From assembly GCF_041886205.1 (NCBI RefSeq), contig NZ_CP169029.1: 64,000 nt of DNA, one strand, 5' to 3'. The notes under the pieces were generated by a model, which was not told the DNA's origin, searched no databases, and saw only the letters and a program-made list of their open reading frames with translations. Of the stretch, positions 49,233-59,695 are shown one piece after another (within the stretch, counting starts at the first letter, position 1; every line of letters begins with the position of its first letter). Source of the DNA: Escherichia coli (GTDB lineage Bacteria > Pseudomonadota > Gammaproteobacteria > Enterobacterales > Enterobacteriaceae). Both the position numbers and the translations under genes were made by a program.

Positions 49233-50915
49233 TTATAGGGAATTCAAGATATCTATGTTTGGAAGCTCCACGCAGTAGCAGCCGGTGCGGTGGCTCTCTA
49301 TGCCCGCCCTGTCTTTCATCCGTTTGCCCGTCAACATAAAGGTATAACCATCCAGTGTATTTCTGGCCCGTTTCTTACTCGTGTGGTTTATCGTTTTACC
49401 TTTTGCGTTTGCATAGCCACCCATAATGCCCAGGGTAAAGTCACCCAGTTTTTCAGCGTGGTATTTATAAATGTCCCCTCCAAGTTGATTGATAAATTGA
49501 TTGGTTGTTGTTTTATTTTGCCCATCACTAAGCTTACCAGAGGTTCTTCCGCCCGTAATCTTCATCCACACAGATGCAGACTCAGGCTGTGTATTATCAC
49601 TCACGGCACTGAATTGCTTACGCTCATTCAAATCCATGAGGAACAGTGAGTTAGCCAGTGCCATATTGGTAGCATAACTTCCGTTCTCCGGTCTGTATTG
49701 CCGGGTATCAGATGTGGGAAGATGACTGGTTAAATACCATCCCTTATTATCTGTCCCACTCACGTTTCCTTTCTGCAGTGTGTAATCATAAGCTCCGGCA
49801 ACCACGCGGTTCTTCAGAGAGAATTCTGCATCAGAATTTCCCTCTATAGAAATAATATTAATACCCTCTCTCGTCTGACCACCACTGCCACCTTCATTGA
49901 CATAAACGATGTCACTTTGACCAGAGGTATTACCTTTCACCACCAGACGATCCGTAAGAGAATTATCTCCTTCAAGCACACCACCAAGAGAAATAACACT
50001 ACCCGGTGTCCCGGTATAATTTGCCACGGTAAGAGTATTACCTGTACTTTCTTTTGTAGGATTCAGAATGATATTTTTGTTATTAACAAGACTGCCATTC
50101 ACAGTAGCAGAGAGCAGCTTTGCCGTACCAAAGCTTAAGTCAGCATCATTCGTAATATTCCCGTTTATAATGCTGTTATTAATGACAACGTTTCCATTGT
50201 TATTAACCGAACCATTAATTGTTGCCTGGTCTGAGATGTTTATATAGGCATTCTGGCTGACAGCCATATCTGCATTGACTACTGCAGAACCCAATATAAT
50301 CCCACCATTTTTAACGTTAACCCCCCTCGCCTGTGTCAATGTACCTTCATAAGACATGAATCCTGAGTTATCTTTGATAAGAGCACCATTCCCTGACAAC
50401 TCTGTATTAAAATCATAATCGCCAGCAAGATTGAGAATGAAATCGCCATCATTCTTAATTTTTGCTCCGGCTACAATACCATCAGTATTGATTGTGGTTG
50501 TTCCGTCAAGAGCGTCCCCCTCATCGATTCTTAAACGACCAGCGGAGTTTACGGTTGTATCGGTTGCTGTACCGCCTGATGTTACAGCCAGAAGGCCCCC
50601 GTTCTCTAATACAACATTTGATTTTTGAGTCAGTATATCTGTCAGAGTGCGCGCACCTGCGGAACCCCGACTCTGGTTCCAGGCCCGGCGTATTTCGCTA
50701 TACAACCTGACTCGCGCCGGATCAATGGTATCGCGCCGCTTCTGCCAGTACCGGTAACTGCTGCGATGTACGTCCAGAGCAGCACAAAGGCTGACAACCG
50801 TGTAGCTGCCGCTCAGTCTGGTAACTATCGTAAACCGTTCAGCGAGTCGGACATCAAGAGCGAGGTAGCCTTTTTTAATCTCGTATTGGCACTGTGTGCC
50901 AGTATTGAAATCCAC
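49233..50915 (-). pseudogene. Chimeric remnant: IS3-family transposase fragment (N-terminal ~95 codons) fused in frame to a truncated autotransporter passenger with incomplete beta-domain
   Basis: N-terminus has a transposase HTH-like segment ([23 protein letters not shown]); the rest is paralogous to the 41799..47219 autotransporter but lacks signal peptide and most of the barrel. Confidence 0.7.
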
Positions 50916-50938
50916 GAAATAACTTACTTACCAAGTTT

Positions 50939-52354
50939 CTACATATCCCGTGTGGTTTGTGGATTCACTGAGTTTTGTTTGTCAGATAATGCACAATCGT
51001 TATCCAGAATTTTTGCAGACATATTTCGTTCTACCAAGAGCCGGCAAATCTCTGCGTGCTTCTCCTCAGTGAAGGTGAAGAGAGACATAAAGGCTATTCG
51101 GATCAGTGAGCCTATTGCAGGTAGCAGACAAATCCCGAAGAACAGACCCGATAGCACGCTTTCTTTCTGGATTTGTTCTTGCGGCACGTAGTCAATCATC
51201 GTCAGGAATACACCTATGAGCCCGCCGCCAACTGCAACCGACATCTTGCCGGTAAAGGTTTGTCCGGAGAAGGTGATTGCCGCGCATCGTTTGTGGGTGT
51301 GATACTCCGCGTACTCAATGGTGTCAGCAATCATTGACGAGGTGAGAATGTTGGTCATCATCACAAAAAGCGTACTTAGACCAAGTAGAATAAACAGTAT
51401 TGTCACCTGTTGATATCCAACCACCCACATCACCAAGCGTACCGAGACGTCTAGTCCACAGAGGATCATAAACAGCTTCCGCTTCTGCATCCGGCGTGTC
51501 AGCATCGGCGAGATCAGGCATAACATTGCTGCTAAAATCCCCATAACACCAATAGCCATCTGCAGGCTGCCATCTCCCAGATTATTGATAAAGAAGTAGA
51601 TATAAAGCCCGCCTGCCACGTTGTGGAATACGCAGAAAAAGAACGACAGCAAAACTATAAATAGCGGCTTGTTTTGACGCAGGTTATAGAAGGTGTCGCG
51701 AATAGTTACCTTTTCCGGGCTTGGCGGCACGCGCTCTTTGATCTGTACAAAGCCGTTTAGCATCAGTGGCAGGCCTACTAGCATCATTATCAGCGCAGCC
51801 ATAAAGTAACCCTTATCGTCGCTGTACTGGGCGAAGAATGCCGCTAGTTTTGGGAAAAAGATATTGGCGCAGGCAATCCCGACGTTTACCCCGAGCATCG
51901 CCGCCGTGACAACACGGACACGCTGAGCGGAGTCATTGGTCATCACCGATGACATCGACCAGAACGGGATATCGGAGATAGCATATAGCGTCCCCCATAG
52001 AATGTAGGTTACCCCGGCATAGAGAATTTTTGTGGTCATGCTCGCATCGATTTTATAGAAAGAAAGCAGCGTGACACCTGTGATCAACAGTGGAGCGATC
52101 AGTAAAAAGTGACGAAATTTACCGAACCGACTGTTAATAATATCCATAATGCTAGCAAAAAGAGGATCGTGAACTGCATCCCATGCGCGGGCGATCAGAA
52201 AAATTGTGCTTGCCGCCAGCGCCGAGATCCCCAGCACGTCAGTGTAAAAATAGTTAATAAACGAACCCACTAAGCCAAAGCTAAAACACTGACCTACCCC
52301 ATAACCAAAATAAGACCACAACTCACGAGACGGTATTTTCATTGTCGTTATCAT
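50939..52354 (-). CDS. GPH-family glycoside/pentoside/hexuronide:cation symporter (about 465 aa)
   Basis: MelB/UidB-like N-terminus ([30 protein letters not shown]), 12 TM. Confidence 0.8.
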
Positions 52355-52404
52355 TGATATATACCTGCTTGATCACCCGGCGGCAGAGCACCGGGTCGAT
52401 ATTA

Positions 52405-57219: not shown

Positions 57220-58345
57220 AAAGTTGATTATCGAGGCCAAAATTCTCACCGAACCAGAGGCTGAAGTCGAGCGGGTGATGCATGTGTGTAACGCATGTCG
57301 CTATTGCGAAGGATTTTGCGCCGTGTTCCCGGCAATGACTCAACGACTGGAATTTGGCAAAGCCGACATTAACTATCTGGCAAATCTGTGCCATAACTGC
57401 GGCGCTTGCCTACACGCCTGCCAGTATGCTCCCCCCCATGAGTTTGGGATCAACGTGCCGAAAGCAATGGCAGAGGTACGTCTGGAAACTTATCAACAGT
57501 ACGCGCAACCGGCGGTCTTCGGGGCGCTGTATCGCCGGGCTGGCGTCACCGTGACGCTGGCACTGGTCTTAAGTATGTTCCTCTTTTTACTCCTGGCGAT
57601 GGGGCTGAAGGGATCGCTGCTCCACCCACCGCTGGCCGGTGATTTCTACCAAATCTTCCCGCACAACCTGCTGGCCTGGATGTTTGGATCGGTATTCATT
57701 CTGGCTATTGGTTTACTGATGGTAGGGGTGATCCGCTTCTGGCGCGAGATTTCTCCCGTCGGGCCGCGCCCAGCGGAAATTGCCGAAGCGTCGAGCAACG
57801 CGCTAACGCTAAAATATCTTGACGGCGGACATGGCAAAGGGTGCAACGAAGCGGACGATGCTTTCACATTGATGCGTCGTCGTTTCCACCATTTCACCTT
57901 CTACGGCTTTATGCTCTGTTTCGCCGCGACCATGGTGGCGACGGGTTACCACTACTTTGCTAGTTGGGAAGCCCCCTACCCATTCTTCAGTGTGCCGGTC
58001 ATGCTTGGCACGTTAGGAGGAGTCGGTTTAATCGTAGGCCCGGCAGGCCTGCTGTGGTTAAACCTTAAGCGCTCGCCACTGCATGGCGATGCGCGACAGA
58101 AACCGATGGATCGGGGATTTATTTTACTACTGCTCCTGACTAGCCTCACCGGTTTAGGTTTGCTGGTGGGAAGAGATACCTCATGGATGGGGATCCTGCT
58201 TGCCATCCATCTTGGCGTGGTCATGGCGCTTTTTTTAACAATTCCGTACGGAAAATTTGCCCACGGATTTTACCGCTGCGCGTCTTTACTCAAATGGGCG
58301 ATCGAGAAGCGACGTGGAAAACAGGCGGGGGTCGCAAGCGACTGA
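57206..58345 (+). CDS. tcuB: Tricarballylate utilisation membrane iron-sulfur protein (379 aa)
   Basis: Start ATG 57206 overlaps the tcuA end; Cys clusters [11 protein letters not shown] and [12 protein letters not shown]-terminal TM helices. Confidence 0.9.
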
Positions 58346-58399
58346 CCCGCACACTCTTACCTCTATACATAATTATGATAAGGCAATGGAGCAACCTCA

Positions 58400-59695
58400 A
58401 TGACTCAACAACCATCGCGTACCGGCACGTTCGGCGCAATACTCCGTGTTACCAGCGGTAATTTCCTCGAACAGTTCGATTTTTTCCTGTTTGGTTTTTA
58501 CGCTACTTATATCGCAAAGACGTTTTTTCCTGCCGAAAGTGAGTTTGCCGCATTAATGCTTACTTTTGCCGTTTTTGGCTCCGGCTTTTTAATGCGCCCT
58601 ATCGGGGCCGTGGTATTGGGTGCATATATCGACAGAATTGGGCGACGGAAAGGGCTGATGGTTACCCTGGCGATTATGGGCTGCGGCACGATGCTCATCG
58701 CCCTCGTTCCGGGTTATCAGACTATCGGCCTGCTGGCCCCTGTACTGGTCCTGGTGGGGCGTCTGCTACAGGGATTTTCTGCTGGAGTCGAACTGGGCGG
58801 CGTCTCTGTTTATCTTTCTGAGATCGCCACACCAGGCAATAAAGGCTTTTATACCAGTTGGCAATCGGCCAGCCAGCAGGTGGCGATTGTGGTCGCCGCG
58901 CTGATCGGGTACGGTCTGAATGCCACGCTGGGACACGATGAAATCTCCGAATGGGGTTGGCGAATACCGTTCTTCATTGGCTGCATGATTATTCCGCTGA
59001 TTTTTGTTCTGCGACGTTCGCTTCAGGAAACTGAAACCTTTTTACAGCGTAAACACCGTCCGGACACCCGGGAAATTTTTACCACCATTGCTAAAAACTG
59101 GCGTATTATCACTGCGGGAACCCTGCTGGTGGCGATGACGACCACGACATTTTATTTTATTACTGTCTATACCCCCACTTACGGGAGAACGGTGTTGAAC
59201 CTGAGCGCACGTGATAGTCTGATCGTCACTATGCTGGTAGGGATTTCTAACTTTATATGGCTGCCGATTGGCGGCGCGATCTCTGACCGGATTGGGCGTC
59301 TCCCGGTGCTAATGGGCATCACCTTACTCGCCATCGTCACCACCTGGCCGGTGATGCACTGGCTTACCGCTGCACCTGACGTCACCCGCATGACACTGGT
59401 GCTGCTCTGGTTCTCGTTCTTTTTTGGGATGTATAACGGTGCAATGGTAGCAGCCCTGACAGAAGTGATGCCGGTTTATGTCCGAACCGTGGGTTTTTCG
59501 CTGGCCTTTAGTCTCGCCACGGCGATTTTCGGCGGCCTGACACCAGCCATCTCCACTGCATTGGTCCAGTTGACAGGCGATAAAAGTTCTCCTGGATGGT
59601 GGCTAATGTGCGCTGCGCTGTGCGGGCTCGCCGCGACGACAATACTGTTTGCTCGTCTCAGTAGTGGTTATCAGACAGTAAAAAATAAGCTCTGA
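58400..59695 (+). CDS. tcuC: MFS (MHS-family) citrate/tricarballylate:H+ symporter (431 aa)
   Basis: 12-TM MFS with [14 protein letters not shown]-terminus. Confidence 0.9.

Follow-up and report, generated by a model that had tools for sequence, protein, structure and literature searches.

The chromosome of the Escherichia coli strain represented by assembly GCF_041886205.1 (contig NZ_CP169029.1) carries, between hipA and a yneL-like pseudogene, a block of accessory genes that is missing from K-12. The block lies within a stretch of 64,000 nucleotides, hereafter called the window, whose numbering is used throughout. It is likely to be a mosaic islet lodged at a variable site and composed of three unrelated modules, with a sugar operon and a tricarballylate (tcu) operon among its contents. 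On the evidence of genome comparison, a minor lineage of E. coli has acquired the block, which is rare in the species, and K-12 has not lost it. As a whole the islet is an ordinary mosaic, and its tcu and AIDA-I autotransporter parts belong to systems that are already known; no description of the block itself was found in the literature.

Alignment of the window with K-12 MG1655 by BLAST delimits the insert. Homology stops at 49134 and restarts at 59984, from which point the right-hand flank is 91% identical to the yneL region of MG1655. An earlier note on this DNA had described K-12 as passing almost directly from hipA to yneL, and the distance between hipA and the yneL pseudogene in MG1655 is indeed 317 bp. 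The block of about 10 kb that the note regarded as missing from K-12 is absent there, and its length is refined to 10,849 bp. Gene calls were checked against a listing of open reading frames (ORFs) and against the RefSeq annotation of E. coli CP52E, a genome with 99.9% identity; every gene that had been named was found, each where the note had placed it. The segment 49102–49221, which covers the last 33 bp of the K-12 homology (49102–49134), shows 84% identity to DNA downstream of plasmid-borne AIDA-I. It may be a crossover point or the relic of a mobile element.

The whole block is present in only six of 5,426 complete E. coli genomes, whose copies share at least 99.8% identity. It is because of this rarity that acquisition is preferred to deletion. 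The earlier note had asked for a comparison that would reveal whether K-12 has suffered a loss here, in which case the block would be ancestral E. coli DNA. Such a loss might seem natural given that K-12 has a deletion in the adjacent fimbrial operon (the ydeT remnant), but it is extremely unlikely when the distribution of the block is set beside the structure of the locus in other strains: W, O157:H7, JJ1887 and others, a diverse set, join hipA directly to the helix-turn-helix pseudogene, with fimA within ∼3 kb. The affinities of the genes point the same way, as the tcu unit is ∼95% identical to plasmid copies and the nearest homologues of the hydrolase in the genomes of other species (85%) are those of Raoultella and Enterobacter.

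In strain 0-4 tcuRABC is found at the same site next to quite different left-hand neighbours, which marks the hipA–yneL junction as a variable site where accessory DNA gathers. The exact hydrolase protein of the block is indexed in 657 blocks of public assemblies. Ten loci encoding it were inspected, all from E. coli, and the tcu–LacI–hydrolase arrangement beside hipA is seen in each of them. The symporter, followed by the AIDA remnant or by an intact AIDA-I gene, completes the arrangement in eight, the other two being drafts without called genes at that place. The hipA side differs in three of the ten, hipA being displaced or lying outside the 10-kb flank. SMODS and SAVED (CBASS-like) genes occupy this side in VE-T9 and a cluster of reverse-transcriptase and AAA ATPase genes in locus L103, hipA falling outside the 10-kb flank in both, and Zot-like genes of filamentous-phage type are present in L094.

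A classical integrase-mediated genomic island was also considered and rejected. RefSeq annotation and Pfam disclose no integrase among the genes of the block, a tRNA scan found no tRNA gene, and neither the block nor the tcu unit has flanking or terminal repeats, direct or inverted. Rfam matches are likewise lacking in the interval 47000–64000. The features of the block are collected in Table 1.

Table 1. Features of the block and its right-hand flank, in window coordinates
Feature	Position	Strand	Basis or remark
Whole insert relative to K-12 MG1655	49135-59983	.	10,849 bp vs 207 bp of K-12 (BLAST against MG1655 and a K-12-derived strain)
AIDA-I autotransporter remnant	49233-50645	-	NF033176, 937 bits vs cut-off 1200
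IS3-family transposase fragment (pseudogene)	50625-50879	-	RefSeq annotation of CP52E; NF033516 matches ORF residues 23-99
GPH-family glycoside:cation symporter, second gene of hydrolase operon	50939-52354	-	TIGR00792, 308 bits vs 231; Pfam MFS_2 full length
Clan GH-A (GH5-like) retaining glycoside hydrolase, cytoplasmic, 361 amino acids	52405-53490	-	
Operator-like palindrome CTAATAWWTATTAGCTAA	53515-53536	both	∼25 nucleotides upstream of hydrolase start codon; also detected as inverted repeat
LacI-family transcriptional regulator, divergent from hydrolase operon	53676-54683	+	Pfam LacI helix-turn-helix, Peripla_BP_3/1
tcu unit, tcuRABC with flanks	54689-59862	+	5,174 bp; segment common to plasmid and other chromosomal copies
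tcuR, LysR-family regulator	54792-55718	+	Pfam HTH_1 and LysR_substrate; RefSeq name TcuR
tcuA, flavin adenine dinucleotide (FAD)-dependent tricarballylate dehydrogenase	55816-57219	+	NF006130, 786 bits vs cut-off 369, residues 1-461 of 467
tcuB, 4Fe-4S membrane protein re-oxidising TcuA	57206-58345	+	NF011607, 707 bits vs 524, full length
tcuC, tricarballylate/proton symporter (MFS)	58400-59695	+	NF011656, 727 bits vs 445
yneL-like helix-turn-helix pseudogene, right conserved flank	59939-60175	+	RefSeq annotation

The tricarballylate unit and the autotransporter remnant

Tricarballylate, a tricarboxylate that derives from the rumen and from plants, cannot be used by most E. coli. In Salmonella, where the pathway is established, it is taken up by TcuC and oxidized by TcuA to cis-aconitate, the electrons passing through TcuB to the membrane; TcuR is expected, from work in that genus, to switch on tcuABC. 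The cluster in the window had been judged complete in the earlier note, and the NCBIfam cut-offs and the gene order bear this out: TcuA passes its equivalog model, tcuB (with the start codon that RefSeq assigns) and tcuC lie directly downstream, and the order is R-A-B-C on a single strand. This arrangement is that of tcuRABC in Salmonella enterica LT2, and TcuA, TcuB and TcuC are all full length and above the cut-offs of their models. In contrast to its LT2 counterpart, the present copy lies in the E. coli chromosome beside hipA and abuts a LacI gene, the tcu unit beginning 6 nucleotides past the LacI stop codon. A point on the other side is that the RefSeq label for TcuC is only 'MFS transporter'. 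In the pathway that can be proposed for this strain, TcuC would import tricarballylate, the FAD-dependent TcuA would oxidize it to cis-aconitate and TcuB would hand the electrons from TcuA to the membrane, with the LysR-family protein TcuR switching on tcuABC. The functions of the Salmonella Tcu proteins are described in PMC10468695, where TcuB is an FADH2:quinone oxidoreductase; the 4Fe-4S clusters and haem of TcuB pass electrons to acceptors in the cell membrane, as described by Lewis & Escalante-Semerena (2007).

The tcu unit is shared with large Salmonella and E. coli plasmids at 94.6–95.8% identity and, over its full length, with plasmid pEcoEC16b and with the chromosome of strain 0-4 at 95.7–95.8%. 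The pair tcuAB is found in 35 of the 5,426 complete E. coli genomes, in 24 of these on plasmids. The two ends of the unit, its first 128 bp (54689–54816) and its last 135 bp (59728–59862), match many plasmids that have no tcu genes and may represent plasmid backbone or DNA of an empty site. The gene tam, which encodes trans-aconitate 2-methyltransferase, lies ∼24 kb from the unit (30267–31025). Trans-aconitate is the rumen precursor of tricarballylate; the proximity of the two loci is probably a coincidence.

At the opposite end of the block, the autotransporter remnant reported by the earlier note proves to be a truncated AIDA-I gene. It spans positions 654–1089 of the 1287 positions of NF033176, the N-terminal 653 and the C-terminal ∼198 residues being gone, and it matches the barrel model TIGR01414 at positions 2–249 of 432 only, which leaves the beta-barrel incomplete. 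The possibility of a functional AIDA-I autotransporter was rejected, as both the passenger and the C-terminal beta-barrel are incomplete and the NF033176 score stays below the cut-off. The raw ORF 49233–50915 joins the AIDA remnant in frame with the IS3 transposase fragment. Judged by their sequences, the AIDA-I gene and the IS3 fragment are non-functional. Strain GF4-3 harbours at the same site an intact AIDA-I gene together with a heptosyltransferase gene, and relative to this strain the window has undergone two deletions. The remnant DNA is 97% identical to plasmid AIDA-I genes and in this respect resembles the AIDA-I/Aah locus of diarrhoeagenic E. coli, from which it differs in having lost both ends of the gene as well as the neighbouring gene for the heptosyltransferase. 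A further autotransporter gene of the window, an ECSE_1600-family member of 1,806 amino acids located upstream of hipB (41799–47219), is intact here and frameshifted in the K-12-derived CAR.

The glycoside hydrolase and its module

The hydrolase (WP_000664239.1) is a member of clan GH-A, as the earlier note had suggested. Its match to Pfam PF00150 (GH5) is weak, at 30.2 bits against a cut-off of 23.5, and the same model is also matched by 26 of 71 long homologues. The residues R63, N170-E171-P172, H249, Y251, E275 and W302 are invariant across an alignment of 40 homologues, and the catalytic motifs NEP and TEW are present. A confident AlphaFold2 model, with a predicted local distance difference test (pLDDT) score of 92.8, shows a (β/α)8 barrel in which E171 stands at the end of strand 4 and E275 at the end of strand 7. 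This placement is the signature of retaining clan GH-A enzymes, with an acid/base glutamate after strand 4 (in NEP) and a nucleophilic glutamate after strand 7. In the model, E171 would thus act as the acid/base and E275 as the nucleophile. Inspection of the sequence reveals no N-terminal hydrophobic segment, in agreement with the earlier view that a signal peptide is lacking, and the hydrolase is therefore regarded as cytoplasmic.

Below the level of the clan the affiliations of the protein are distant. No NCBIfam model matches the hydrolase, and searches of PDB by sequence, profile and structure yielded no solved or characterized relative above 17% identity. Among PDB sequences the strongest hit reaches E=0.12 (2e-4 when a profile of 40 sequences is used) and is confined to the NEP region, with weak local GH10/GH5 similarity. 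The nearest known systems are GH5 (PF00150), above all its mannoside-active subfamilies, and GH164/GH42, from which the enzyme is nevertheless distant: its identity to any solved structure does not exceed 17%, and the Foldseek template modelling (TM) scores are only ∼0.6. The GH10 label '1,4-beta-xylanase' was rejected, as PF00331, with a cut-off of 22.1 bits, scores 14.6 and covers residues 141–217 only. Homologues are numerous: when 1.84 billion cluster representatives (50% identity) were searched with a profile, at least 621 reached E≤1e-30, and 2,305 were found at E≤1e-10. No description of this family was found in the literature. It is conceivable, if rather doubtful, that the hydrolase defines an uncharacterized family or a deep GH5 subfamily and that, together with the LacI regulator, the operator and the transporter, it forms a widespread mobile module of galactose type beyond the LacZ/LacY-type systems. 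Plant or algal galactosylglycerol and galactobioses derived from arabinogalactan would be candidate substrates in that case.

The hydrolase and the symporter had been described earlier as a convergent pair, which is not correct: both genes are on the minus strand, the hydrolase upstream, and the gap between them is 50 nucleotides. The common strand and the short gap indicate that the two constitute an operon. The symporter falls below the cut-offs of the equivalog models for MelB, UidB and YagG, so that its placement is at the level of the GPH family only. A divergent LacI-family regulator, also recognized previously, precedes the operon; no NCBIfam equivalog model is reached by this protein at cut-off. 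The regulator displays the attributes of the LacI/GalR family, with an N-terminal helix-turn-helix domain, an effector domain and, nearby, a predicted palindromic operator-like site. This AT-rich palindrome, CTAATAWWTATTAGCTAA, occurs nowhere else in the window, the number of matches expected by chance being 0.01. Among 78 regions upstream of homologous hydrolase genes, 20 contain its 14-nucleotide core with no more than one mismatch, as against 1 of 1,123 background windows. The palindrome is the predicted binding site of the LacI-family regulator. A terminator scan of 50800–54900 found no terminators, and promoter-like sites in the same interval are no commoner than expected by chance. A CRP-like TGTGA element was seen upstream of the operator in many loci, by eye only, and no claim is attached to it.

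The composition of the operon suggests how it might work. The LacI-family repressor would occupy the palindrome just ahead of the hydrolase gene, repression being lifted by an effector sugar. A small glycoside would then be brought in by the GPH symporter and split by the retaining GH-A enzyme in the cytoplasm, the released sugars entering central pathways. This scheme presupposes an active module, and a small chance remains that the sugar genes, like the AIDA gene, are passengers in decay that have ceased to function. They adjoin pseudogenes and insertion sequence (IS) fragments, and in two draft genomes (L094 and L102) no symporter gene is called beside the hydrolase. Decay is, however, difficult to reconcile with three genes that are full length when compared with their family models, with the intact catalytic residues of the hydrolase, with a perfectly conserved operator and with six complete copies that are at least 99.8% identical.

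A survey of the neighbourhoods of 80 homologous loci from many genera indicates that the arrangement recurs. A LacI-family gene is located no more than four genes from the hydrolase in 49 loci and is its immediate divergent neighbour in 30. The GPH symporter is adjacent in 25 of the 80, all but one of which are from Gammaproteobacteria or unclassified proteobacterial genomes; in Rhodobacteraceae loci an ATP-binding cassette (ABC) transporter takes the place of the symporter. The recurrence of the LacI gene, the operator palindrome and a transporter defines a conserved module in which repressor, operator, hydrolase and transporter go together and which is found in Enterobacterales, Vibrionaceae, Aeromonas, Succinivibrionaceae, Rhodobacteraceae and Planctomycetes.

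Within the plasmid collection the sugar module has no near counterpart, matches being restricted to the tcuR end and to IS sequences. A paralogous module of LacI gene, GH-A hydrolase and GPH symporter (∼67% DNA identity) is carried by large E. coli plasmids, ∼37 in number. One such copy, in locus L093 (NZ_CP087378.1, 6769–12227), is ∼1.6 kb from IS26 and blaCTX-M-27 and has an IS2 inserted between the hydrolase and LacI genes. Aeromonas sanarellii (L027, 11214–13647) possesses a second hydrolase paralogue with its own divergent LacI gene ∼2 kb from a copy linked to gal genes. In Buttiauxella (L024), Hafnia (L026), Citrobacter sp. (L032) and locus L087, two or three Gfo/Idh/MocA oxidoreductase genes are followed by the hydrolase and GPH genes, and two members of the hydrolase family are fused to a 3-keto-disaccharide hydrolase domain. 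These neighbours and fusions hint at a link to an oxidative (3-keto) glycoside pathway in some lineages.

Candidate substrates of the hydrolase

As regards the question of what the hydrolase acts on, the leading candidate is a glycoside of galactose configuration, either a beta-D-galactoside or, possibly, an alpha-L-arabinopyranoside. This assignment is tentative, applies within the hydrolase question and is drawn from the gene neighbourhoods and domain fusions of homologues. In Aeromonas sanarellii a GalR-like gene is followed, on one strand, by galT-galK-galM-hydrolase-GPH. In Photobacterium and Vibrio galE, galT, galK and galM lie beside the module; of these, galE (Photobacterium) and galM (Vibrio crassostreae) are confirmed by Pfam, the others, galT and galK of the Vibrio locus among them, are assigned by eye from ORF translations and by clustering of ORFs with Pfam-confirmed Aeromonas genes, and galK of Photobacterium is assumed. 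A Pirellulales genome has galK two genes upstream, and in Vibrio aestuarianus and one metagenome-assembled genome the transporter gene is directly followed by a gene for a GH36 alpha-galactosidase. Domain fusions among the 71 long family members involve aldose 1-epimerase in three cases, DUF4380, which weakly resembles a mutarotase family, in four, GH43 in eight, GH29 fucosidase in three and GH51 arabinofuranosidase in two. A retaining beta-galactosidase frees beta-galactose, which a mutarotase converts for galactokinase in the Leloir pathway. The gal neighbours and the mutarotase fusions fit this logic, and a galactose-configured glycoside is therefore ranked first.

The organization in Aeromonas finds an analogy in the galR-galKTEM-lacSZ cluster of Streptococcus thermophilus, in which a GPH-family transporter, LacS, is combined with a beta-galactosidase. 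The Aeromonas hydrolase and GPH genes similarly follow galT-galK-galM behind a GalR-like regulator. The likeness is one of analogy only: the hydrolase is a 361-residue GH-A/GH5-like protein and not a GH2 LacZ, and the E. coli module stands alone with its own LacI regulator.

Several observations count against a galactose-configured substrate. Only a few independent lineages (Vibrionaceae, Aeromonas and one Planctomycete) account for the neighbourhoods with gal genes, most loci, that of the E. coli window included, have no sugar-specific catabolic gene beside the module, and the GH43 and GH51 fusions would fit xylosides derived from arabinoxylan too. Fold similarity and the best structural match would suit a cytoplasmic exo-beta-mannosidase acting on imported beta-mannosides such as mannobiose, Man-beta-1,4-GlcNAc or galactomannan oligosaccharides, an alternative that is unlikely but ranks second. 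Neither the frequent neighbour clusters nor the neighbours that were scanned include mannose- or xylose-specific genes. A xylanase or beta-xylosidase acting on imported xylo-oligosaccharides is less probable still. It would account for the name '1,4-beta-xylanase' in some database records, for a weak, local resemblance to GH10 xylanases near the NEP motif and for the GH43 and GH51 fusions, which are seen in arabinoxylan degraders, but the PF00331 score is, as stated above, below its cut-off. Xylosides are accordingly placed, with glucosides, lower in the ranking than galactose-configured glycosides and beta-mannosides. The earlier note had proposed manno-, xylo- and cello-oligosaccharides for trial; the gene context suggests that galactosides are to be favoured over these.

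Other elements of the window and wider meaning

Beyond the right-hand boundary of the block, a ydeT-type fimbrial operon (60609–62343) is broken in another way than in K-12: a fimA fragment (60609–60749) abuts a complete IS3 (transposase 60780–61942), after which only a C-terminal piece of the usher gene is found. Two further elements lie to the left of the block. An IS200/IS605 element between tam and lsrG (31113–32756) consists of a gene for a TnpB-like RNA-guided endonuclease and a frameshifted tnpA, and genes for a RelE/ParE toxin and a helix-turn-helix antitoxin are situated between marR and marC (18670–19264).

The comparison shows the hipA–yneL junction to be a site at which accessory DNA accumulates. 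To judge from its gene content, the block probably adds two carbon sources, tricarballylate and a glycoside, to those open to a minor lineage of E. coli. The wider value resides in the hydrolase, which belongs to a large family with a conserved module and operator, in which no characterized member was found and of which a paralogue is carried on resistance plasmids. Once assigned, the function of this hydrolase could cover thousands of database entries that are now labelled 'cellulase' or 'xylanase'.

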